From Megasphaera elsdenii DSM 20460 (GTDB lineage: Bacteria > Bacillota > Negativicutes > Veillonellales > Megasphaeraceae): a DNA stretch of 32,000 nt. The stretch is taken from the NCBI RefSeq assembly GCF_003010495.1, contig NZ_CP027570.1, forward strand, positions 2,070,001 through 2,102,000, written 5' to 3'. Position numbers and translations under genes: made by a program. Positions 2,084 through 32,000 of the stretch are shown here, in pieces; position 1 is the first letter of the stretch; every line of letters starts with the position of its first letter. The notes under the pieces were generated by a model. The model saw nothing but the letters and a program-made list of their open reading frames with translations, was not told the origin of the DNA and did no database searches.

Positions 2084-3379
2084 TTATCCCCGGGCCGCCC
2101 GGAATGCTGTTTCCGCGGCTTTGACGGTGCGTGCGATATCCTCATCGCTGTGGGCGCCGGAGACGAAGTTGGTTTCAAATTGGGACGGTGCCAGGTAGAT
2201 GCCTTGTTCCAGCATGGACAGGAAGTAGCGGCGGAAGGCGTCCTGGTCGCTGGCTTCGGACGTGGCGTAGTTGGTGACCGGGACGGCGCTGAAGAAGACG
2301 CTGAACATGGTGCCGGCCCGATGGACCTGGACGGCAGCACCGGCCTGGGCAGCGGCGTCTTTGAGGCCGTCTGTCAGGATTTTCGTTTTGGCACAGGCTT
2401 TTTCGATGTAATCCGGGTCTTCTGTGATGAGGCGCAGCGTTTCCAGTCCGGCTGCCATGGCCAGGGGGTTGCCGCTGAGGGTACCGGCCTGGTAGACCTG
2501 GCCGGCCGGCGAGACGCAGTCCATGATGTCTTTACGGCCGCCATAGGCTGCGACGGGCAGGCCGCCGCCAATGATCTTGCCCAGGGTCGTCATGTCCGGG
2601 ACGATGTGATAGATACTCTGGGCGCCGTGCAGGGCCGTGCGGAAGCCGCACATGACTTCGTCGAAGATGAGGACCGTGCCATGCTTCTGTGTTTCGTCAC
2701 GCAAGAGCTGTAAATAGCCTTCTTCCGGCAGGACCAGGCCCATGTTGCCGGCAATGGGTTCGACGATGACGGCGGCAATGTCGTCGCCGCAGCGGTCCAT
2801 GAGTTCCCGGAAGGCGTCGGCATCATTATAGGCGACGGTCAGCGTGTCTTTGGCCGTGCCGGCTGTGACGCCTGGGCTGTCGGGCTGGCCGAAGGTGGCG
2901 GCACCGGAACCGGCTTTGACCAGCAGGCTGTCGCCGTGGCCGTGATAGCAGCCGATGAATTTCACGATTTTATCGCGTCCCGTATAGCCGCGGGCGGCGC
3001 GGATGGCGCTCATCGTCGCTTCCGTGCCGGAATTGACCATGCGCAGTTTTTCGATGGACGGGTAGATTTCTTTGACCAGTTTGGCCAGCTGCGATTCAAT
3101 CAGCGTCGGGGCGCCATAGCTCGTGCCGCGCGTGGCCGCTTCCTGCAGGGCCTTGACGACGCGGGGGTGGGCATGGCCGACGATTATGGGACCCCAGGAA
3201 CCGACGTAGTCGATGTACTGATTGCCGTCGATGTCACAGATGGTACTGCCTTTGGCCCAGGCGATGAACGGCGGCGGACAGCCGATACGGTTATACGAGC
3301 GGACCGGGCTGTTGACGCCGCCCGGCATGAGGGTCTGCGCTTCGGCAAAAGCCGCAGCTGATTTTTCTAAATGGAGCAT
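2084..3379 (-). CDS. hemL: Glutamate-1-semialdehyde 2,1-aminomutase
   Basis: 431-aa class-III aminotransferase fold. N-terminus ...AQTLMPGGVNSPVRSY... and PLP-lysine context TTLGKIIGGGLPVAAYGG are typical of HemL. It is the last gene of the hem operon. Confidence 0.95.
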   Translation of the reverse strand: MLHLEKSAAAFAEAQTLMPGGVNSPVRSYNRIGCPPPFIAWAKGSTICDIDGNQYIDYVGSWGPIIVGHAHPRVVKALQEAATRGTSYGAPTLIESQLAKLVKEIYPSIEKLRMVNSGTEATMSAIRAARGYTGRDKIVKFIGCYHGHGDSLLVKAGSGAATFGQPDSPGVTAGTAKDTLTVAYNDADAFRELMDRCGDDIAAVIVEPIAGNMGLVLPEEGYLQLLRDETQKHGTVLIFDEVMCGFRTALHGAQSIYHIVPDMTTLGKIIGGGLPVAAYGGRKDIMDCVSPAGQVYQAGTLSGNPLAMAAGLETLRLITEDPDYIEKACAKTKILTDGLKDAAAQAGAAVQVHRAGTMFSVFFSAVPVTNYATSEASDQDAFRRYFLSMLEQGIYLAPSQFETNFVSGAHSDEDIARTVKAAETAFRAARG

Positions 3380-3391
3380 GGGAAGGCCTCC

Positions 3392-4660
3392 TCATTCTTT
3401 GATGTCTAAGTTGAATACATTCCGCAGTTCACGGACGACCCGGTCTTCATCGGGCGTGTTGGCCGCTTCGACGGTGCGCCGCAGGGGAGCGCGCAGGATT
3501 TTGCGGACCAGGATGTGGGATAAGTTCTCGACGACGCGGAACTGGTCGTCTGTCAGTTCGGGCAGTTTGTTGCGCGCCCGCTTGACGAAATGGCGCCGCG
3601 TCCGTTCGGCCTGCTGGGACAGGCTAAGGACGACGGGGCGGACGGACAGGTATTGATAGCGTTCAATCATGGTGTCCACGGCTTCGTCGACGATATAGCT
3701 GGCGGCAATGGCTTCGCGCTGACGCGTCGCTTCGTTATCGTGGACGACTTCCTGCAGGTCGTCGATGTTATATAAGGTCACGCCGGGAATCTGGGTGATT
3801 GCCGGGTCGGCGTCGCGCGGGACGGCGATGTCGATGATCAGCAGGGGCCGCCCTTGGCGCAGTTCCTGGAAACGCTGCAGCCGCGGGACGGTGATGACAT
3901 AGTGCGGTGCGCCAGTCGAGGCGATGATGATGTCGACATCGGAAACGACGGACTGGACTTCTTTATAGTGGACGGCCTGGCCGCCGACGTCCGCCGCCAG
4001 TTCCTGGGCCCGATCCAGATGGCGGTTGACGATGTACAGTTTCCCGGCACCTTTGCCTAAGAAATTCTGGGCTGTCAGGCGGGCCATCTGGCCGGCGCCG
4101 TAGAGCAGGAGGTTCCGGCCAGAGAGGGAGCCCAGGCTTTTTTCGGCCATCTGGACAGCGGTATAGCTGACGGATACGGCATTGTAGGCAATGTGCGTTT
4201 CCGTCCGGACCCGTTTGCCTGTGGCGATGGCCTGCTGGAAGAGCATGTTGAGGATGGCACTGGTCGCACCGTTTTCATGGGCCATGACGTAGGCCTGTTT
4301 GACCTGACTGAGTATCTGACCTTCGCCGAGGACCAGTGAGTCCAGGCTGGCGGCGACGGTGAACAGGTGGTGGATGCAGGCTTTCCCCGTATAGCTGTAG
4401 AAATACGCCGGGTCATAAGCCGGGCGGCCGGCCAGGTCGAGGAAGAAGTCGCGCAGGGCCTGTTCGTTGTCCCGGATGTCGTCGACGACAGCGTAGACTT
4501 CGGACCGGTTACATGTCGACAGGACGACGGCTTCGCGCAGGCCGCCGTAATCGTCGAGGTGCTGCAGGCCCTGGTGGATGGCGTCCGGCGTCATAGTGAA
4601 GCGTTCCCGGATGGCGACGGGGACGGTCTTATGGTTGAGGCCAAGGATGACGAGGTCCAT
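3392..4660 (-). CDS. hemA: Glutamyl-tRNA reductase
   Basis: MDLVILGLNHKTVPVAIRE... and the catalytic-Cys motif LSTCNRSEVY. I prefer ATG 4660, 2 nt after the hemB stop, over the track start at 4693, which would overlap hemB. The start is uncertain by 33 nt. Confidence 0.92.
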   Translation of the reverse strand: MDLVILGLNHKTVPVAIRERFTMTPDAIHQGLQHLDDYGGLREAVVLSTCNRSEVYAVVDDIRDNEQALRDFFLDLAGRPAYDPAYFYSYTGKACIHHLFTVAASLDSLVLGEGQILSQVKQAYVMAHENGATSAILNMLFQQAIATGKRVRTETHIAYNAVSVSYTAVQMAEKSLGSLSGRNLLLYGAGQMARLTAQNFLGKGAGKLYIVNRHLDRAQELAADVGGQAVHYKEVQSVVSDVDIIIASTGAPHYVITVPRLQRFQELRQGRPLLIIDIAVPRDADPAITQIPGVTLYNIDDLQEVVHDNEATRQREAIAASYIVDEAVDTMIERYQYLSVRPVVLSLSQQAERTRRHFVKRARNKLPELTDDQFRVVENLSHILVRKILRAPLRRTVEAANTPDEDRVVRELRNVFNLDIKE

Positions 4661-4662
4661 CG

Positions 4663-5652
4663 TTAGGCCTCGACTTCGTCGTTCTTCAGCCACTTAGCGA
4701 CGTCGACGGCGTGGTAGGTGATGATGATGTCCGCACCGGCGCGCTTCATGCTGGTCAATTCTTCCATGACGATGCGCTTTTCGTCGATCCAGCCATTGCG
4801 GGCAGCCGCTTTGACCATGGCGTATTCGCCGCTGACGTTGTACGTGGCAATGGGCCGCTGGCAGCGCTGGCGGGCCTGGTAGACGATGTCCAGGTAGGAC
4901 AGGGCCGGCTTGACCATGATGATGTCGGCGCCTTCTTCCAGGTCGAGGTCGATTTCCTTCATGGCTTCGCGGCCGTTGGCCGGGTCCATCTGATACTGGC
5001 GGCGGTCGCCGAAGTGCGGTGCCGAATCGGCGGCGTCGCGGAAGGGACCGTAGAAGCCGGAGGCATATTTGGCGGCATAGGACATGATGATGGTGTTGAT
5101 GAAGCCTTCTTCATCCAAGGCCTGGCGGATGGAGGCGATGTGGCCGTCCATCATGTCCGACGGGGCGACGATGTCGGCACCGGCTTCGGCCTGACTGACG
5201 GCGACTTTGTTGAGCAGTTTCAGCGTGGCGTCGTTATCGACGTAGTGGTCTTTGATCTGGCCGCAGTGACCGTGGTCGGTGTACTGGCAGAGGCAGACGT
5301 CACCGACGATGACCATGTCCGGCAGGGCTTTCTTGATGGCCCGGATGGCGCACTGGACCGGGCTTTGCGGGTCCCAGGCGCTGGAACCGATTTCGTCTTT
5401 GTAAGCCGGCAGGCCGAAGACTTCGATGGCCCGCAGCCCTAAGGCATAGATGTCTTCGGCCAGGCGGACGGCGTTGTCTACGGACAGGTGATAACAGCCG
5501 GGCATGCTGGGGATTTCTTCTTTGACATTCGTGCCGGGGACGACGAAGATAGGGTAAATCAAATCGTTGAGGCATACATGGTTTTCCCGGACCATAGCGC
5601 GCAGGGGAGCGGAAAGGCGCAGGCGGCGGGGGCGTAAGGTATTCAATTTCAT
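4663..5652 (-). CDS. hemB: Porphobilinogen synthase (delta-aminolevulinate dehydratase), Zn-type
   Basis: Cys-rich metal site GDVCLCQYTDHGHCG and active-site lysine context IIMVKPAL. The likely start is MKLNTLRPRRLR at 5652, forming an ATGA overlap with the cobA/hemD stop. The track start at 5682 is an upstream extension. Confidence 0.94.
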   Translation of the reverse strand: MKLNTLRPRRLRLSAPLRAMVRENHVCLNDLIYPIFVVPGTNVKEEIPSMPGCYHLSVDNAVRLAEDIYALGLRAIEVFGLPAYKDEIGSSAWDPQSPVQCAIRAIKKALPDMVIVGDVCLCQYTDHGHCGQIKDHYVDNDATLKLLNKVAVSQAEAGADIVAPSDMMDGHIASIRQALDEEGFINTIIMSYAAKYASGFYGPFRDAADSAPHFGDRRQYQMDPANGREAMKEIDLDLEEGADIIMVKPALSYLDIVYQARQRCQRPIATYNVSGEYAMVKAAARNGWIDEKRIVMEELTSMKRAGADIIITYHAVDVAKWLKNDEVEA

Positions 5653-7169
5653 GACTGTTTGATTCTCCAATCTGTAATACATTCAGCCAGGCCGGCAATG
5701 GTGTAGGTCTGGGCTGTCACTATTTTTTTCAGGCCCGCTTCCTGACAGGTACGGGCCGTGATGGGGCCGATGCAGGCGAAGGTGATATCATCCAGGTCGC
5801 TGGCCTGGGCCTGGCTCAGGGAGAGGAAACTGCGGACGGCTGACGAGCTGGTGACGGTCACGACGTCGATGGTCTGGCGGGCCAGGAGGTCTTTCAGGAC
5901 GGCGCCGTTTTCGCTGGCTTCGACGGTGCAATAGGCCTGGCAGACATCGACGACGGCGCCCCAGCGGCGCAGTGTGTCGGGCAGGACCGACCGGGCTTCT
6001 TTGGCCCTGGGGATGAGGATGCGTTCTTTGCCGGAAAGGTGCGGCTCCAGGGCGGCGGCCAGGTCTTCGGCACAGTAGGCGCCGGGGACGACGTCAGCCT
6101 GGAGGCCGTAAGCTGTCAGGGCCTTGGCCGTGGCACTGCCGATAGCGGCCAGTTTGGCCCGGCCCAGGGCACGGCTGTCGCGGCCGTGATGCTGGAGACG
6201 GCGGAAAAAGGCATCGACGCCGTTGGTGCTGGTGAAGATGACCCAGTCGTAATGTTCCAGGTCCGCTATGGCAGTATCCAGCGCCTGGTAGCCGTCTGTC
6301 GGCGGCGTGATGCGGATGGTCGGCACTTCCAGGCAGCGGGCACCCAGTTCTTCCAGGCGATGTGTCAGGTCCGGCGCCTGGGCGTGGGTCCGGGTGACGG
6401 CGATGGTCAGGCCGAAGAGGGGCTTCGTGTCGAACCACTGCATGGACGGCCGCAGGGCGACGACGTCGCCGACGATGAAGACGGCCGGTGCCTTGAAATG
6501 GCAGGCCGCCGCTTTTTCGGCGATATCTCCGACCGTAGCCACCAGCGTTTCCTGGTCGGCCTTGGTGCCCCAGCGGACCAGGGCTGCCGGCGTCGTCGCA
6601 GGACGGCCGTGGGCGACGAGCTGCTGGGTGATGGATGGCAGGTTGTGGACGCCCATGAGGAAGACCAGCGTATCGACGGCCGTTGCCAGTTTGTCCCAGT
6701 GAATCGATGACTGGCCTTTGGTCGGGTCTTCGTGACCTGTGACGACGGCAAAGGACGAAGCCGCCGTCCGGTCGGTCACGGGGATACCGGCATAGGCCGG
6801 GGCGCCGATGGCCGACGTGACGCCTGGGATGATTTCAAAGGGCAGGCCCGCGTCGTGGAGCGCCCGGCTTTCTTCGCCGCCGCGGCCGAAGACGAAGGGG
6901 TCGCCGCCTTTGAGACGGACGACAATCTTGCCTTCTTTGGCTTTGGCAATGAGCAGGTCGATGATTTTGTCTTGGGACAAGGTGTGGTCGGCCGCTTTTT
7001 TGCCGACATATATTTTTTCCGCTGTTGGCGGAGCAAATTCTAGAAGGCGCGGATCGGCCAGATAGTCGTAGATGACGACATCGGCCCGTTCCAGGACCTC
7101 CCGGCCCCGCAGGGTGAGCAGGCGGTAGTCGCCGGGACCGGCGCCAGTGAGATAAACGATACCGTTCAT
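5649..7169 (-). CDS. cobA: Bifunctional uroporphyrinogen-III C-methyltransferase / uroporphyrinogen-III synthase
   Basis: The N-terminal half carries the SUMT motif VYLTGAGPGD...VVRLKGGDPFVFGRGGEE. The C-terminal roughly 250 aa is HemD-like. The same fusion architecture is known from Selenomonas and clostridial CobA/HemD. Confidence 0.9.
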   Translation of the reverse strand: MNGIVYLTGAGPGDYRLLTLRGREVLERADVVIYDYLADPRLLEFAPPTAEKIYVGKKAADHTLSQDKIIDLLIAKAKEGKIVVRLKGGDPFVFGRGGEESRALHDAGLPFEIIPGVTSAIGAPAYAGIPVTDRTAASSFAVVTGHEDPTKGQSSIHWDKLATAVDTLVFLMGVHNLPSITQQLVAHGRPATTPAALVRWGTKADQETLVATVGDIAEKAAACHFKAPAVFIVGDVVALRPSMQWFDTKPLFGLTIAVTRTHAQAPDLTHRLEELGARCLEVPTIRITPPTDGYQALDTAIADLEHYDWVIFTSTNGVDAFFRRLQHHGRDSRALGRAKLAAIGSATAKALTAYGLQADVVPGAYCAEDLAAALEPHLSGKERILIPRAKEARSVLPDTLRRWGAVVDVCQAYCTVEASENGAVLKDLLARQTIDVVTVTSSSAVRSFLSLSQAQASDLDDITFACIGPITARTCQEAGLKKIVTAQTYTIAGLAECITDWRIKQS

Positions 7170-7182
7170 AGAGAGAACCTCC

Positions 7183-8118
7183 TTAATAGGTCGGGATGAT
7201 GCCCAAATCAGTGAGGATGCGGCGGCCGCCGTCGTCGAGGAGTGTGCAGGCGGCCTCGTGGCCGATGGCGGCGCTGTCCGCCGCGGAGCCGCGTGTCGTC
7301 GTGCGGCAGACCTGGCTGCCGTCGGGAGCGGCGATGATGCTCTGCAGCGTCAGGATGCCGTCCTGGACGGTGCCGTAGACGCCGACCGGGACCTGGCAGC
7401 TGCCGTTGATGGCGGCCAGAAAGGTCCGTTCGGCCGTCGTCGCAGCGGCGGTGCCTTCGTCATTGAGGAAGGCCAGGGCCTGTTTCAACGATTCGTCGTC
7501 TGCGCGGGTTTCGATGGCCAGGGCGCCCTGGCCGACGGCGGGAATCATCGTATCGACGGGCAGGAGCTGTGTGATGCGGTCGGCCCGGCCCAGGCGCTGC
7601 AGACCGGCTTCGGCCAGGATGATGGCGTCGTATTGGCCGTCGTCGAGCTTCTTCAGGCGCGTGTCGACGTTGCCCCGCAGATCGGCGACGAACAGGTCAG
7701 GCCGGGTGTGGAGGAGCTGGGCCTTGCGGCGCAGGCTCGACGTGCCGATACGGGCACCGGCCGGCAGGGCTTCCAGGGACGCATAGGTATTGGAAACGAA
7801 GGCGTCGTGGACATGGTGGCGGGCCGTAATGGCTGCCAGGCAGAGGCCGTCCGGGACGTCCGCCGGCAGGTCCTTCAGACTGTGGACGGCCAGGTCGATG
7901 GTGCCGTCCAGGAGGCGTTGTTCCAGTTCTGTCGTGAACAGACCTTTGCCGCCGATGCGGGCCAAAGGGACATCGAGGATTTTGTCGCCTTGCGTGACGA
8001 TGTGCTGGAGCTGGACGGTCAGTTCCGGGTCGTGCCGGCGCAGGGCTTCGGCGACGTAGTTGGCCTGCCACAGGGCCAGCTGGCTGCGCCGCGTACCGAT
8101 AGTCAGATTACGTTTCAT
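7183..8118 (-). CDS. hemC: Hydroxymethylbilane synthase (porphobilinogen deaminase)
   Basis: LTIGTRRSQLALWQANYV... and ...GNVDTRLKKLDDGQYDAIILAEAGLQRLG... are canonical HemC motifs. Confidence 0.95.
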   Translation of the reverse strand: MKRNLTIGTRRSQLALWQANYVAEALRRHDPELTVQLQHIVTQGDKILDVPLARIGGKGLFTTELEQRLLDGTIDLAVHSLKDLPADVPDGLCLAAITARHHVHDAFVSNTYASLEALPAGARIGTSSLRRKAQLLHTRPDLFVADLRGNVDTRLKKLDDGQYDAIILAEAGLQRLGRADRITQLLPVDTMIPAVGQGALAIETRADDESLKQALAFLNDEGTAAATTAERTFLAAINGSCQVPVGVYGTVQDGILTLQSIIAAPDGSQVCRTTTRGSAADSAAIGHEAACTLLDDGGRRILTDLGIIPTY

Positions 8119-8755
8119 GGTTTTTCCTTTCCCAGGCGGCCAGCCGCTTCCGGAGGAGGGAGCTGGCGGCGTCGATTTCGTTGTTTTCTACCAGGTCCAT
8201 GACGTCATCGGTCAGGGCCTGGCGCCAGAAGGCCTGGCGGTCCCGGCTGGTCGCGAGGAGGGCCTGGCCCTCTTTGCGGATAGCGGCCAGTTCAGCCATC
8301 CAGCGGCCATAGCGTTCGTCGAAGTGCTGTTCCAAGTGCTTCCGGAGCCAGCGCGAAAAGGCCGGCGCCTTGCCGTTGGTGGAGATGGTGAGCTGCAGGT
8401 CGCCCTGGCGGACGATGGAGGGCAGGGTGAAGTTGCACAGGTCCGGGACGTCACAGACATTGAGCAGTTTCCCCTGGGCTTTGGCAGCAGCTGAAACGGC
8501 TTGGCTGACGGCCTCGTCATCGGTGGCGCAGATGATGAGGAAGAAGGTGGTTTCATCGCCAGGCTGATAGGTCCGCCTTTGCCAGGACAGTTGATGTTCT
8601 TCGGCCAGAATCTGCAAAGCTGGTGTCAAGGCCGGTGCAATGACCGTTACGACGGCCCCTTCATCGAGGAGACGCCGGACCTTGCGTTCGGCGACGCTGC
8701 CGCCGCCGAGGACCAGACAGGCCTGACCGGTAAGATCGAGGTTAATAGGATACAT
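8108..8755 (-). CDS. sirC: Precorrin-2 dehydrogenase / sirohydrochlorin ferrochelatase family protein (CysG N-terminal-domain like)
   Basis: 215 aa with N-terminal Rossmann motif LVLGGGSVAERKVRRLL, as in SirC/Met8p/CysG-N. First gene of the hem operon, overlapping hemC by 11 nt. Confidence 0.82.
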   Translation of the reverse strand: MYPINLDLTGQACLVLGGGSVAERKVRRLLDEGAVVTVIAPALTPALQILAEEHQLSWQRRTYQPGDETTFFLIICATDDEAVSQAVSAAAKAQGKLLNVCDVPDLCNFTLPSIVRQGDLQLTISTNGKAPAFSRWLRKHLEQHFDERYGRWMAELAAIRKEGQALLATSRDRQAFWRQALTDDVMDLVENNEIDAASSLLRKRLAAWERKNHET

Positions 8756-19087: not shown

Positions 19088-19188
19088 CATTTCATCTGTC
19101 GGAATGTTCCGTTGGAATTGGCACCTTCCCGATAGGGGGTTGCCGCAGCGTCATCGGGCCAGTCCCTCAGCTGCTCTGGATGAAGGGT
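19088..19188 (-). promoter_or_regulatory. SAM-I (S-box) riboswitch aptamer
   Basis: The minus strand reads CTTCATCCAGAGCAGCTGAGGGACTGGCCCGATGACGCTGCGGCAACCCCCTATCGGGAAGGTGCCAATTCCAACGGAACATTCCGACAGATGAA. It contains the S-box hallmarks AGAG, GAGGGACTGGCCCGATGA, GGCAACC and GGTGCCAATTCC, plus a closing P1 helix TTCATC/GATGAA. Confidence 0.88.
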
Positions 19189-27674: not shown

Positions 27675-27703
27675 TTGACGTCATATGTCAATTAGCGTAT
27701 AAT
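27675..27703 (+). promoter_or_regulatory. sigma-70-type promoter for the tRNA gene
   Basis: TTGACG (27675-27680), 17 nt, TATAAT (27698-27703), 30 nt upstream of the tRNA 5' end. Confidence 0.55.
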
Positions 27704-27733
27704 GATTTGGTAAGGCCTTGTGCCTTATCCTTT

Positions 27734-27808
27734 GGGCCTATAGCTCAGTGGTAGAGCCACCGGCTCATAACCGGTTGGTCCTTGGTTCGAACCCAAGTGG
27801 GCCCACCA
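27734..27808 (+). tRNA. tRNA with anticodon CAT (elongator Met or lysidine-modified Ile2; not initiator)
   Basis: GGGCCTATAGCTCAGTGGTAGAGCCACCGGCTCATAACCGGTTGGTCCTTGGTTCGAACCCAAGTGGGCCCACCA forms a cloverleaf: acceptor GGGCCTA/TGGGCCC, anticodon loop CTCATAA, T-arm GGTTCGAACC, and an encoded CCA. The paired 1-72 position argues against fMet. The TTGGTC variable region resembles Ile2(CAU) tRNAs, but identity cannot be settled by eye. Confidence 0.9.
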
Positions 27809-27814
27809 TCAATG

Positions 27815-27864
27815 AAAAAGAGACCGTACATGATAAAAATCTTCATGTGCGGTCTTTTTGTTTT
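27815..27864 (+). terminator. tRNA terminator (= CATGA...CCTTCRTG hairpin module, copy D)
   Basis: AAAAAG-AGACCGTACATGA-TAAAAATC-TTCATGTGCGGTCT-TTTTGTTTT. The stem contains one G-U position. Confidence 0.65.
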
Positions 27865-28015
27865 GCCTCTCTTTATAGGAGAGGTGCCCCAGCAGGGCGG
27901 AGAGGTTGAACTATGATTGGGCATGTCAAAGAAATCTTCTACCTTTTGTATTTATGTCTACGCAAAATTGCTATTAGAAGATACTGATGAAACTGCTTAT
28001 ATTTCGCCCAATTTG

Positions 28016-28037
28016 ACAACTAACTGCTAGCCACTAA
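28016..28037 (-). repeat. 22-nt exact inverted copy of part of the 21901-21935 heptad array
   Basis: The reverse complement of 28016-28037 is TTAGTGGCTAGCAGTTAGTTGT, identical to 21902-21923. Confidence 0.85.
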
Positions 28038-28092
28038 TGGCTTGAAAGGGATTGTTGCGCGTGTGACCATCCCTTTTTTTATTAAGATTGTG

Positions 28093-28122
28093 TTGCCACG
28101 AGACGCCTTGAGGTTATATAAT
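28093..28122 (+). promoter_or_regulatory. Candidate promoter of the RACo-like/metH operon
   Basis: TTGCCA (28093-28098), 18 nt, TATAAT (28117-28122), about 36 nt upstream of ATG 28159. Confidence 0.4.
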
Positions 28123-28158
28123 TTATGTATTATGGATAATCTTTTTAGGAGGAAGTAT

Positions 28159-30285
28159 ATGGCAGATATTCGTATCATCCGGGGGCAGCGGATTGTTCCC
28201 GATATAGAGCAGGCCTTGCGCTTTGCCGGCTATGGCTCGAAAGGGGAGGCCTGGGAACGGGCTGAAGGGATGTGCCGGGATATGGCACCGCTCCTGCGGC
28301 GGTCTTTGCAGGCCAAGGCGGCTCTGGCTTTTGCCGGGGAACGGCTCTATGTCATCCTGACGTTAGGCGCGGCTGTGAGTCGTCAGCTGGACCGCTATCG
28401 CGATGACGGCGACGACGTAGGGGCTCTGCTGTTCGATGCCATGGCGGATACGTGTCTGTTTGCTTTGGAACAGCAGGTTCTCCAGCAGCTCCGACTCATT
28501 TGCCGGCAAAAGGGCTGCGGCATCGTCTGCCGGCACGAGCCGGGAAGCGACCTGCCTTTATCGGTCCAGGCCGATGTCATCCGTGAGACTTCTGCCGGCC
28601 GGACGGTCGGCGTGACGGTCAATGCCTCGATGGCTTTGTCGCCGGTGAAGTCCATGAGCCTGGTCTTTGACTTAGGCGACGACCCGGCTGTGTTCCAAGT
28701 GAATCACGATTGTACATCCTGCCCGAAGACGGATTGCACCCAGCGCCAGGCTGGAACGTCTCAGGAAGTGCATATTACCTGCCCCGGAGGCTGCCGGGTC
28801 CATGACTATATCCAGGCTCAGGGAACGGCTCTGGCCCTGCCTTGCGGCGGTAAGGGCATGTGCGGCAAGTGCCGCGTCCGCGTCGTCCAGGGGACATTGC
28901 CGGTCACGCCCGAAGACCGGCGCATCTTTTCTGATGAACAACTGGCCCAGGGCTGGCGCCTGGCCTGTAAGGCCGTGACCTGCGATGCCGTAGAGCTCGT
29001 CGTCCCGGTCCAGGAGCAGCAGGGCTTTTCGGCCGTCGCAGCCGACTCGACGGACCCGGCTGCTGTGGTAACGGAAGGTCATGACTACGGGCTGGCTGTC
29101 GATATCGGGACGACGACGTTAGCCGCAGCCCTCGTCGACTGCACCGATGGCCAGATCCTGGCGACGGCGACGGCCGTCAACAGCCAGCGTTCCTTTGGGG
29201 CCGACGTCATCAGTCGTATCGGCGCTGCCTGCCATGGCAAGGGAAAGGCCTTGCAGAAAGCCGTCCGTCGCGATTTGACGCGCCTTGTGCAACAACTCTT
29301 CCAGGACCATCCCGGCGTTGCCGGCCATTGTCACCGCATGGCTATCGCGGCCAACACGACGATGCTCCATCTGCTCATGGGCTGGTCTTGTGAGGGCTTG
29401 GGGAACTGGCCCTTCCATCCCGTCTCGCTAGGTGGCGGGACCTATGAAGTACAGGCCGTTCTGGGACGGCAGGGCGTACTTACGGACTGCACGGTGACTT
29501 TGCTGCCTGGCATGAGTACCTACGTCGGTGCCGATATTACGGCCGGCATCTGGCAGTGCGGCGTCGCTTCGTCGGACGACCTCAGCTTGTTCGTCGATTT
29601 GGGGACCAATGGGGAGATGGCCCTGGGGAACAAAGAGAAACGCTTCATCGCTTCGGCACCGGCCGGGCCGGCCCTGGAAGGGGGCAAGCTGACCTGGGGA
29701 ACAGGCAGTGTGCCCGGGGCCATCTGCGGGGTCCGCATCGAGCGGGGCCGGGCCAAGGTGCGGACCATCGACCATGGGGTCCCTGTCGGCATCTGCGGGA
29801 CGGGCATCCTGGAAGCCATGGCCAGCCTCGTCCGGGAAGGCCTGGTCGACGAAACGGGGAAACTCGTCGAACCTTATTTCCATAAAGGCTTCCCGCTGGC
29901 ATCGACGCTGGATTATCAGCGCATCATCCTGAGCCAGCAGGATATCCGGGAAATCCAGATGGCCAAGAGCGCCATCCGGGCCGGTATCGAATCGCTCATC
30001 GAACGGAGCGGCCTTTCCCGCCAGCATATCCGGCAGGTCTGGCTGGCCGGCGGCTTCGGCTATTATCTGGATCCGCAGAAAGCGGCTGTCATCGGCCTGC
30101 TGCCGCCGGATTTGGCTGAACGGACGACGGCCGTGGGCAATACGTCCCTGAAAGGGGCCATCGGCCTTTTGACAGGCACCGTGACTTTAGACACGTTACA
30201 GGCCATCGCCGACGGGGCGGAAGAAATCGTCCTCGGCAACGATGAAGCCTTTCAGCGTTTATATATCGACTATCTGAATTTTTAG
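28159..30285 (+). CDS. Fusion protein: MetH-activation-domain-like N-terminus + plant-type 2Fe-2S ferredoxin + RACo-like ASKHA ATPase (DUF4445-type corrinoid reductive activase)
   Basis: ATG 28159 follows RBS AGGAGG; the track's TTG 28042 is an extension. The N-terminal roughly 220 aa resembles stand-alone B12-methionine-synthase activation domains (...EPGSDLPLSVQADVIRETSAGRTVGVTVNASMALSPVKSMSLVFDLG... then CTSCPKTDCTQR). The ferredoxin motif is CGGKGMCGKCRV...LACKA. ASKHA phosphate motifs are AVDIGTTTLAAALVD and DLGTNGEMALG, and a later ICGTGILEA segment is also RACo-like. Confidence 0.85.
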   Translation: MADIRIIRGQRIVPDIEQALRFAGYGSKGEAWERAEGMCRDMAPLLRRSLQAKAALAFAGERLYVILTLGAAVSRQLDRYRDDGDDVGALLFDAMADTCLFALEQQVLQQLRLICRQKGCGIVCRHEPGSDLPLSVQADVIRETSAGRTVGVTVNASMALSPVKSMSLVFDLGDDPAVFQVNHDCTSCPKTDCTQRQAGTSQEVHITCPGGCRVHDYIQAQGTALALPCGGKGMCGKCRVRVVQGTLPVTPEDRRIFSDEQLAQGWRLACKAVTCDAVELVVPVQEQQGFSAVAADSTDPAAVVTEGHDYGLAVDIGTTTLAAALVDCTDGQILATATAVNSQRSFGADVISRIGAACHGKGKALQKAVRRDLTRLVQQLFQDHPGVAGHCHRMAIAANTTMLHLLMGWSCEGLGNWPFHPVSLGGGTYEVQAVLGRQGVLTDCTVTLLPGMSTYVGADITAGIWQCGVASSDDLSLFVDLGTNGEMALGNKEKRFIASAPAGPALEGGKLTWGTGSVPGAICGVRIERGRAKVRTIDHGVPVGICGTGILEAMASLVREGLVDETGKLVEPYFHKGFPLASTLDYQRIILSQQDIREIQMAKSAIRAGIESLIERSGLSRQHIRQVWLAGGFGYYLDPQKAAVIGLLPPDLAERTTAVGNTSLKGAIGLLTGTVTLDTLQAIADGAEEIVLGNDEAFQRLYIDYLNF

Positions 30286-30297
30286 GGGGAACTTAGA

Positions 30298-32000
30298 TTG
30301 ACTAACGAAGAATTCCAGCACTTGCTCAGCCGCGGCGTCGTCATGCTCGACGGTGCGACCGGGACGAATCTGCAACAGGCGGGCATGCCTATCGGCGTCT
30401 GCCCGGAAAAATGGATCTTGGAGAACCGCCAGGTCATGATCGACTTGCAGCGCCACTTCGTCGAAGCGGGCAGCCAAATCTTGTATGCACCGACCTTTAC
30501 GGGGAACCGCATCAAACTGGCCGAATACGGTCTGGACGACCAGCTGGCCGCCATCAACCAGGGCTTGGTCGCCATTTCCAAGGAAGCCGCCCAGGGGAAG
30601 GCCCTGGTCGCCGGCGATATGACCATGACGGGCCAGCAGCTCTATCCCATGGGCGACTTGACCTTTGAGGAACTGGTCGATGTTTATCGCCAACAGGCAA
30701 AGGTCTTGTATGATGCCGGCGTCGACCTGTTCATTGTCGAAACCATGATGAGCCTCCAGGAAACGCGAGCCTGCGTCCTGGCCATCAAAGAAGTCTGCGA
30801 CCTGCCCATCATGGCGACGCTGACTTTTGAAAAAGACGGCCGTACCCTCTATGGGACGCCGCCGGAAGCGGCTGTCGTCGTCCTGCAGCATCTCGGCGTC
30901 GCCGCTGTCGGCCTGAACTGCTCGACCGGGCCGGCCGATATGGTGGAAACGGTCCAGAAGATGTATGAATATGCAACGGTTCCCCTCATTGCCAAGCCCA
31001 ATGCGGGCCTGCCGGAATGGGATGGCGACAAGACGGTCTACAAGACGACGCCGGAAGAATTTGCTCAGGACGGTAAACTGCTCATCGAAGCCGGTGCCCA
31101 TATCGTCGGCGGCTGCTGCGGGACGACGCCGGACCATATCCGGGCCCTCCACGATGCGGTCTGCCAGATGACGCCGAAAGCGCCTCATGCCAGCCATCAC
31201 CGCGTCCTGGCTTCGGAACGGCAGGTCGTGGAAATCCAGCTCGACGGCTCTTTCCAGGTCATTGGTGAACGCATCAACCCGACGGGCAAGAAGAAGCTCC
31301 AGGCTGAACTGCGGGCGGGAAAGCTAGACCTGGTACGCGCCATGGCCCGCGAACAGGAACGCAACGGCGCGGCCATCCTCGATGTCAACATGGGGACCAA
31401 CGGCATTGATGAAAAGGAAATGATGCTCAAAGCCATTTACGAAGTGACGGGCGTATCGGGCCTGCCCCTCAGCATCGATACGAGTTCGCCGGAAATCATG
31501 GAAGCGGCCCTGCGCATCTATCCCGGCCGGGCCTTGGTCAATTCCATTTCCTGTGAAACGGAAAAGCGCAAACAGCTCCTGCCGGTCGTCAAGAAGTACG
31601 GCGCCATGTTCATTGCCCTGCCCGTATCCGACGCCGGTATCCCTAAGACGCTGGAAGAAAAGCACGCCGTCCTCGACGAACTCCTGACCGATGCCTATGA
31701 CCATGGCTTTACGCCGGAAGACGTCGTCGTCGATGCCCTGGTGGCTACGGTCGGGGCGGCACCGACGTCGGCCCTGGACTGCATGGCGACTTTCTCGCAC
31801 TGCAAACGCGACCTGGGCCTGGCGACGGTCTGCGGGTTGTCCAATATCTCCTTCGGCCTGCCCGACCGGATGTATGTCAATGCCACCTTCTTGGGCATGG
31901 CCATCGCCAGCGGCCTGACCATGGCTATTGCCAATCCGTCCCAGGACCTGCTCATGAATACGGCAGCGGCTGCCAACATGCTCATGAATAAGGAAGGCAG
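30298..32000 (+). CDS. metH: Cobalamin-dependent methionine synthase core (homocysteine S-methyltransferase + pterin-binding domains; 3' end beyond window)
   Basis: Not in the ORF track because there is no in-window stop. Frame 1 is open from TTG 30298 (7 nt after AGGGGGA) to the window end. My translation gives MTNEEFQHLLSRGVVMLDGATGTNLQQAGMP..., the Zn-site motifs GLNCSTGP and VGGCCGTTPDHIRAL, then the pterin-domain start [16 protein letters not shown]...ILDVNMG...SIDTS...NSIS. Confidence 0.9.
   Translation, partial: MTNEEFQHLLSRGVVMLDGATGTNLQQAGMPIGVCPEKWILENRQVMIDLQRHFVEAGSQILYAPTFTGNRIKLAEYGLDDQLAAINQGLVAISKEAAQGKALVAGDMTMTGQQLYPMGDLTFEELVDVYRQQAKVLYDAGVDLFIVETMMSLQETRACVLAIKEVCDLPIMATLTFEKDGRTLYGTPPEAAVVVLQHLGVAAVGLNCSTGPADMVETVQKMYEYATVPLIAKPNAGLPEWDGDKTVYKTTPEEFAQDGKLLIEAGAHIVGGCCGTTPDHIRALHDAVCQMTPKAPHASHHRVLASERQVVEIQLDGSFQVIGERINPTGKKKLQAELRAGKLDLVRAMAREQERNGAAILDVNMGTNGIDEKEMMLKAIYEVTGVSGLPLSIDTSSPEIMEAALRIYPGRALVNSISCETEKRKQLLPVVKKYGAMFIALPVSDAGIPKTLEEKHAVLDELLTDAYDHGFTPEDVVVDALVATVGAAPTSALDCMATFSHCKRDLGLATVCGLSNISFGLPDRMYVNATFLGMAIASGLTMAIANPSQDLLMNTAAAANMLMNKEG

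Follow-up and report, generated by a model that had tools for sequence, protein, structure and literature searches.

How does a B12-dependent methionine synthase that lacks a reactivation domain of its own recover from oxidation? The enzyme is inactivated about once per 2,000 turnovers and needs repair (PMC10293825), and two repair solutions are recognised: a built-in or split domain that works with S-adenosylmethionine (AdoMet) and flavodoxin, and a RamA/RACo-type ATPase, which for the methionine synthase MetH is supported by genetics only. The question is raised by a 32,000-nucleotide stretch of the Megasphaera elsdenii DSM 20460 genome (positions 2070001-2102000 of a single contig of 2.48 Mb that is 99.99% complete; hereafter the window). 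In it a truncated metH is preceded by a gene for a 708-residue fusion protein that covalently ties a relative of the first solution to the second, next to the substrate, in a culturable rumen and gut genus. We propose that this protein is probably the dedicated reductive activase of the adjacent MetH, based on the identities of its domains, their intact motifs, the operon arrangement, the uniqueness of both partners in the genome and the distribution of the parts across genomes, from which we infer the individual steps of a mechanism. The two genes and the modules of the fusion are the following.

28159-30285, plus strand: fusion gene, ATG start, TAG stop, 708 aa, four modules
28159-28698, plus strand: residues 1-180, MetH reactivation-domain fold of the TM0269 type, from profile, Foldseek and VIA-align comparisons
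28705-28746, plus strand: residues 183-196, H-D-C-x2-C-x4-C-x2-R motif (His/Cys3 motif), a probable metal site, likely Fe-S, from conservation
28762-28974, plus strand: residues 202-272, plant-type [2Fe-2S] ferredoxin domain, Pfam Fer2 E 9e-10
29086-29565, plus strand: residues 310-469, RACo middle domain, Pfam PF17651 E 4e-43, 147.2 bits (cut-off 26.8), with phosphate-1 motif D315-I-G-T-T-T
29581-30276, plus strand: residues 475-706, RACo C-terminal ASKHA domain, Pfam PF14574 E 3e-64, 217.2 bits (cut-off 27)
30298-32000, continuing to window-equivalent 32769, plus strand: metH of the truncated type, TTG start, GGGGGA ribosome-binding site, 823 aa

The neighbour is a truncated-type cobalamin-dependent methionine synthase, as the initial annotation had predicted from the part of the gene that lies in the window. 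Read past the window end, its 823 residues comprise S-methyl_trans, Pterin_bind, B12-binding_2 and B12-binding domains and stop right after the B12 domain, with no reactivation domain found by Pfam over the full length. MetH is intact otherwise, with DxHxxG at residues 714-719 and the zinc cysteines 208, 273 and 274. The two genes lie on the same strand, as had been described, although the gap between the fusion stop and the metH start is 12 nt, not 13, with metH starting at TTG 30298. The partners are also unique in the genome: MetH is its sole protein with a B12-binding_2 cap and thus the only methyltransferase-type corrinoid protein, the fusion is its sole RACo_C_ter protein, and apart from MetH only a class-B radical SAM enzyme matches B12-binding strongly. 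No canonical PF02965 reactivation domain occurs anywhere in the genome.

The N-terminal domain of the fusion is distantly but securely related to the MetH reactivation domain in its small, TM0269-like version, which agrees with its earlier description as activation-like. It escapes direct detection: residues 1-200 had no Pfam match even at E<=1 and received nothing in Pfam and NCBIfam scans of the whole protein, and a single-sequence phmmer search of the domain against the PDB gave 1J6R at E 0.11, level with chance proteasome matches. The check that had been suggested for the 708-aa product came out divided, with Fer2 and RACo domains matched as expected and Met_synt_B12 (PF02965) failing to reach its gathering threshold against the N-terminal domain alone (7.7 bits, cut-off 25, E 2.15), while the homology is significant at the level of profile and fold. 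Residues 1-200 were searched exhaustively against 1.84 billion representatives (E<=1e-3), which gave 888 relatives in two length classes, of about 200-225 aa and about 700-810 aa. One alignment comprised the query and 53 short stand-alone relatives (54 members) and a second one 67 long fused relatives. The profile of the first alignment matches almost all of TM0269 (1J6R), at E 1.5e-11, and 16 of its 54 members individually reach PF02965. With the AlphaFold2 model built from it (predicted local distance difference test, pLDDT, 95.3), the top 19 Foldseek matches are all MetH reactivation domains, and VIA-align superposes the model on 1J6R at Z 17.8 with a root-mean-square deviation of 2.4 Å over 167 residues and on the MetH proteins of Thermus, E. 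coli and human at Z 13-14.5, the next best match reaching at most 4.6. Its neighbours in the ESM Atlas are three clusters of about 200-212 aa, two of which carry automatic names that refer to methionine synthase or its activation domain. The domain thus has the C-shaped reactivation-domain fold, in a chain of 708 aa rather than as a single-domain protein of about 200-220 aa, and it is like TM0269 both in its significant profile match and in being encoded next to a MetH without a reactivation domain.

A second relative of the reactivation domain, a stand-alone protein of 220 aa absent from the initial annotation, is encoded outside the window, alone between purA and parB (G000:C1:893025-893513, minus strand, corresponding to L034:6957-7619, minus strand). 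It matches the profile of the stand-alone alignment at E 1.8e-11 and is 25% identical to the N-terminal domain of the fusion, with no Cys tail and with neither the Arg nor the Tyr of the RxxxGY motif discussed below. Each of the 22 Megasphaera genomes sampled contains a second sequence that the domain profile matches more weakly, and in 21 this comes in addition to the fused open reading frame (ORF).

The first mechanistic question is whether the N-terminal domain still uses AdoMet. In class II methyltransferases, the AdoMet-binding motif is RxxxGY (PMC7982431). At this position the fusion has RHEPGSD (residues 125-131), as had been read in the initial annotation, and the alignment with RISPGYGD of TM0269 shows a segment one residue shorter, in which Arg125 is retained and the Tyr has gone by the deletion, so that R-x-x-x-G-Y is not preserved. 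The family consensus here is R-L-E-A-P-x-D, and against the family profile the Tyr of TM0269 counts as an insertion. TM0269, for its part, reportedly requires AdoMet. The missing Tyr could mean that the fusion is an AdoMet-free activase, which is essentially what the initial annotation implied: the N-terminal domain would be a docking and uncapping scaffold that does not bind AdoMet, ATP hydrolysis would replace the pull of methylation, and Co(I)-MetH would be methylated by methyl-tetrahydrofolate, much as AdoMet is not required by the RACE-type activators that serve other corrinoid proteins (PMC7317905). We regard this as possible and rather unlikely. The Tyr is equally missing in stand-alone members from genomes without RACo, so its loss is not linked to the gain of the ATPase; being common to the whole domain family, it offers no evidence that the ATPase made AdoMet dispensable. 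Moreover, the motif Arg is retained in 48/54 stand-alone and 60/67 fused sequences, and the columns of Pro162 and Lys164 are invariant or nearly so in both forms, which argues for a ligand pocket under selection; Glu127 is somewhat less kept in the fused form. Because the Arg and Pro162/Lys164 are equally conserved in the two forms, we lean towards a retained pocket, with AdoMet probably still the methyl donor, and consider this the least certain step of the mechanism.

The ATPase half is less ambiguous, and its earlier assignment as a plant-type ferredoxin followed by a RACo-type ASKHA core with ATPase motifs is confirmed throughout. Residues 201-708 match Carboxydothermus RACo (3ZYY, 4C1N) at E 1e-69, a match that spans both the [2Fe-2S] domain and the ATPase core. 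The ferredoxin ligands Cys 229, 235, 238 and 270 are complete and conserved in the fused family, and the domain aligns with the RACo [2Fe-2S] domain of 3ZYY. All of the ASKHA nucleotide motifs are in place: in the phosphate-1 motif D315 is invariant among the 67 fused relatives, G317, T319 and T320 are each kept in 66 and T318 in 61, and the phosphate-2 motif D480-L-G-T-N-G-E and the adenosine motif G631-G-F-G are near-invariant in the same set. Of the findings that the initial annotation had named as refuting it (an activation domain in MetH itself, an N-terminal domain without significant homology, missing ATPase motifs), none was obtained. Both RACo domains are called in 66/67 of these relatives and Fer2 in 57/67. 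NCBIfam gave partial AcsV and RamA-type matches below their cut-offs, and there was no RACo_linker call in the fusion protein. The full-length AlphaFold2 model is confident (pLDDT 92.7, predicted template modelling score 0.76), with weaker linkers at residues 181-201 and 281-300, and the fusion therefore reads as folded modules on tethers.

The first of these linkers carries the His/Cys3 motif, another feature absent from the initial annotation. The motif lies beyond the part that aligns with TM0269 (model residues 2-173) and is nearly invariant in the family: C185, C188 and C193 are present in 54/54 members of the stand-alone alignment and in 65-67 of the 67 fused relatives, and H183 in 53/54 and 62/67, respectively. 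A 46-residue segment around it has a weak Pfam match (E 0.018) to the C-terminal part of ScfRs, a family that one fused relative matched at E 1e-3. In MtPrpR, the structural prototype of that family, a C-x2-C-x4-C loop wraps a cubane [4Fe-4S] cluster whose fourth ligand comes from elsewhere (PMC6765138), and the spacing of the three cysteines here is the same. From the conserved residues we consider the loop a probable metal site, likely Fe-S, and take the likeness to PrpR as a lead, not as proof. The motif points to a metalloprotein nature of the stand-alone reactivation proteins that are common in anaerobic Bacillota, a property that we did not find described in the literature searched.

What the site does can be read in two ways. 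It may be a structural zinc site with no redox role, in which case the [2Fe-2S] cluster would hand electrons straight to cobalt, as happens in RACo. Three Cys and one His within 11 residues are typical of a zinc knuckle too, the similarity to the PrpR cluster loop is weak and the AlphaFold2 confidence at the loop is only 61-82, and we give this reading a real chance, if less than an even one. The cysteine spacing shared with the [4Fe-4S] loop of MtPrpR speaks against zinc, as do the placement of the motif exactly between the docking and ferredoxin domains and the stand-alone members in RACo-less strict anaerobes, which need an electron entry point. A bolder proposal, which we offer tentatively and hold to be somewhat improbable, is that those relatives of the reactivation domain that have a Cys tail bind iron and sulfur, with a [4Fe-4S] cluster in the His/Cys3 loop that injects electrons directly into MetH-bound cob(II)alamin. 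In the fused form this cluster would be the mid-station of an ATP-gated wire, [2Fe-2S] to [4Fe-4S] to cobalt, with the partner-specific docking domain replacing the serine by which RACo contacts cobalt (see below). If true, this would be a third, flavodoxin-independent route of MetH reactivation, widespread in anaerobic Bacillota.

Returning to the proposed dedicated MetH activase, its cycle would begin when cobalamin is oxidised to inactive cob(II)alamin. The N-terminal domain would then take hold of the MetH B12-binding domain in its uncapped, His-off state, as the homologous domain does in E. coli MetH and as TM0269 does as a stand-alone protein in Thermotoga. In E. coli the reactivation domain binds the uncapped B12 domain in this His-off Cob(II) state, and the reductant needs it in order to dock and act (PMC10293825). 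An electron from a cellular low-potential donor would enter via the plant-type [2Fe-2S] domain and would probably be relayed by a second metal centre in the loop of His183, Cys185, Cys188 and Cys193 with which the docking domain ends. The RACo-type ASKHA core, by binding and hydrolysing ATP, would then make the uphill step from Co(II) to Co(I) possible and one-directional; RACE ATPases drive an electron uphill onto Co(II) with the help of ATP and of a [2Fe-2S] domain on a flexible tether (PMC7317905). Finally, Co(I) would be re-methylated, presumably from AdoMet. On the simplest reading, by analogy with these two systems, the reactivation domain would provide partner recognition and the RACE part the energised electron. 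In the stand-alone forms, the His/Cys3 site would be the natural candidate for the point at which electrons enter.

Several observations weigh against this proposal. Ser398 of RACo ligates Co(II) in the complex with the corrinoid iron-sulfur protein CoFeSP (PMC4934906), and the equivalent position is Pro501 here and Ala in 64/67 fused relatives, so that the RACo core cannot contact cobalt as it does in CoFeSP. The docking domain and the RACo core, moreover, cannot both cover the same corrin face, and the Cys-less paralogue described above resides in the same genome. Other points come from a survey of the domain and RACo in 301 genomes sampled from the phylum. The domain was present in 115 genomes, almost always as a stand-alone ORF of about 210-280 aa, with fused ORFs in seven genomes; 52 genomes had the domain and RACo, 63 the domain only, 110 RACo only and 76 neither. 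There was no genome-wide association between the two, RACo being present in 45% of genomes with the domain vs 59% of those without it. As 63 of the 115 genomes with the domain have no RACo, the stand-alone relatives do not need the ATPase, and AdoMet and a reductant may be all that the docking domain requires to reactivate MetH. Fused genes outside Megasphaera do not adjoin metH and lie in unrelated neighbourhoods. Lastly, one genome has a split form (G054, L046:6926-10427, plus strand) in which a gene for a URO-D-family (MtaA-like) methyltransferase is followed by a 234-aa Cys-tailed reactivation-like gene and a 582-aa Fer2-RACo gene, the latter two overlapping by 4 nt, and its MetH consists of separate homocysteine-methyltransferase and B12-binding pieces elsewhere; the position of the pair after the URO-D-type gene means that in other lineages the module may act on different corrinoid proteins. 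With regard to the first of these points, the cobalt-ligating serine may be specific to CoFeSP activators rather than family-defining, and recognition of the partner by the docking domain fits with its loss.

The distant fused genes and the split pair of G054, together with the occurrence of RACo in 162/301 genomes, mostly without this domain, would also suit a fusion that serves a corrinoid protein other than MetH, or cobalamin reduction in general (e.g., cob(I)alamin for cofactor processing), its adjacency to metH being incidental. We consider this very unlikely. MetH is the only protein of this genome with a methyltransferase-type B12 cap, and the N-terminal domain is homologous to one whose known partner is the B12 domain of MetH. 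The stand-alone homologue is likewise tied to metH, its gene immediately preceding a co-directional short metH in 13 of the 14 loci fetched, with no RACo within 8 kb; of five stand-alone genomes checked, four have no RACo at all. The order of fusion and metH recurs in the one same-genus locus examined (G156, L036), and a fused ORF (703-782 aa) is present in 21/22 Megasphaera genomes.

The dedicated-activase reading gains further from the five fusion genomes outside Megasphaera, in each of which a short MetH (811-844 aa) is encoded elsewhere and the fusion holds the sole reactivation-like domain; the co-occurrence of fusion and truncated metH that the initial annotation had proposed to survey thus extends beyond the genus, whereas their adjacency does not. 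Fused and stand-alone forms replace each other across genomes with short MetH. The split pair of G054, the mixing of the two forms on the domain tree and the published genetics of Fer2 and DUF4445 proteins (both described below) also count in favour of this reading. None of the fused genes outside Megasphaera has a corrinoid methyltransferase as a neighbour. In genome G092 (L037:6762-7947, minus strand) the fused activase gene is divergently adjacent to genes for a NikR-type regulator and CbiM cobalt uptake, a possible link to cobalt supply.

How the fusion arose is seen in part from a maximum likelihood tree of 128 domain sequences, on which fused forms are intermingled with stand-alone ones, with 36 switches by parsimony and at least 12 forced by the well-supported branches alone, in a set where some rows scored as stand-alone could be metagenomic gene calls cut short. 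On this tree the Megasphaera sequence falls in with other fused forms. Within the order of the window's genome, the fused ORF is found only in Megasphaera: the sister genus and three other families have the stand-alone form only, and RACo was found in none of seven genomes sampled from other families of the order and class. The genes flanking the fusion are shared within the genus only, by a same-slot comparison with the stand-alone gene of the relatives. A related-locus search with the single fusion protein returned Megasphaera loci only, and a homologue search restricted to longer proteins likewise mostly Megasphaera. The genus may thus have acquired the RACo part, or it may have exchanged its stand-alone gene for a fused one. 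The lone sampled Megasphaera genome without a fused ORF (G361, 1.8 Mb) has two matches of stand-alone size (C3:95217-95627 and C34:858956-859540), which may reflect secondary fission or loss.

The fusion can be placed between several known systems. With RACo of Carboxydothermus hydrogenoformans and the RACE-RamA family (COG3894, DUF4445) it shares the order of [2Fe-2S] domain, RACo middle and ASKHA domain, and like RACo it is encoded beside its presumed corrinoid substrate. Unlike RACo, it has an extra reactivation-like domain of 200 residues and the His/Cys3 motif in front, it presumably acts on MetH and not on CoFeSP or a methylotrophic corrinoid protein, and the serine equivalent to Ser398 is replaced by Pro or Ala. 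In fitness genetics, Price et al. 2018 (PMC5764234) found that RamA-like proteins with Fer2 and DUF4445 are needed for methionine synthesis where MetH lacks PF02965. Those of Phaeobacter inhibens and Desulfovibrio have the same pairing with such a MetH and the same inferred task of reducing Co(II) to Co(I), in Phaeobacter with a DUF1638 protein as a co-factor (PMC5764234); they are described as ferredoxin plus DUF4445 only, and this published description sets them apart from the fusion. GapMind, in turn, lists PF02965 and PF14574 as alternative families for the MetH reactivation step, whereas the Megasphaera protein holds relatives of both in one chain. The principle of ATPase-driven MetH reactivation is therefore already known from this genetics and from GapMind, and is less new than the initial annotation implied. 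We found no biochemical demonstration of RACE-type MetH reactivation in the literature searched, which also yielded no account of a fusion between RACo and a reactivation-like domain, and none of the Cys-tailed domain family.

On the side of the reactivation domains, TM0269 of Thermotoga maritima has the same fold and is likewise encoded beside a MetH without a reactivation domain, and it differs in retaining R-x-x-x-G-Y (RISPGY), having no Cys tail and being unfused. To judge from the title of Huang et al. 2007, its gene lies downstream of metH, whereas that of the Megasphaera fusion lies upstream. The reactivation domains of E. coli, Thermus and human MetH (PF02965; 1MSK, 8SSC, 9SSV) share the core of the fold over about 182 residues, and for them too the partner to be expected is the MetH B12-binding domain. 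Compared with them the N-terminal domain is about 130 residues smaller and 12-18% identical, falls below the Pfam threshold, has no motif Gly-Tyr and is located on a separate polypeptide. The Megasphaera pair is a compact two-protein system that bears on RACE reactivation of MetH, on how the partner is recognised and on whether ATP replaces or supplements AdoMet. It is also relevant to annotation, since public records call such proteins 'ASKHA domain-containing protein', 'ferredoxin' or 'DUF4445' and omit the N-terminal domain, which Pfam misses.

The two genes appear to form an operon with the following signals upstream.

28093-28122, plus strand: Sigma-70-type promoter for the two-gene operon, TTGCCA-18-TATAAT, 11/12 consensus matches, a consensus match only
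28148-28153, plus strand: ribosome-binding site AGGAGG of the fusion gene, read from the sequence, 5 nt ahead of ATG 28159

A longer reading of the fusion ORF from TTG 28042 is unlikely, because this near-consensus promoter falls inside it and close relatives of the fusion protein are 708-709 aa long. No terminator-like site was found on the plus strand in 27700-30400. The operon comes after the dnaG-rpoD pair, an arrangement kept in the same-genus locus of G156, with a tRNA gene (27734-27805, plus strand) between rpoD and the fusion. Two genes downstream of metH is a 588-aa ORF for an Amt ammonium transporter fused to a P-II domain (L001:6729-8495, plus strand, approximately window-equivalent 33728-35494); it was not found in the locus of G156, where the flanking GFO and Metallophos genes are about 130 nt apart. 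Elsewhere in the window, the early B12 genes that had been noted as consistent with B12 dependence are indeed present, as a hem cluster at 2084-8755 (minus strand) with hemL, hemA, hemB, a cobA-hemD fusion, hemC and a CysG-N-type dehydrogenase. No riboswitch or leader was found ahead of the operon, nor a riboswitch between the promoter and the fusion start codon; Rfam gave only chance-level matches by its gathering and E-value thresholds. A SAM-I riboswitch (19089-19186, minus strand, 86.4 bits) is located upstream of a methionine ABC transporter pair, an ATPase with a NIL domain and a permease, and methionine uptake and synthesis are therefore apparently regulated differently.

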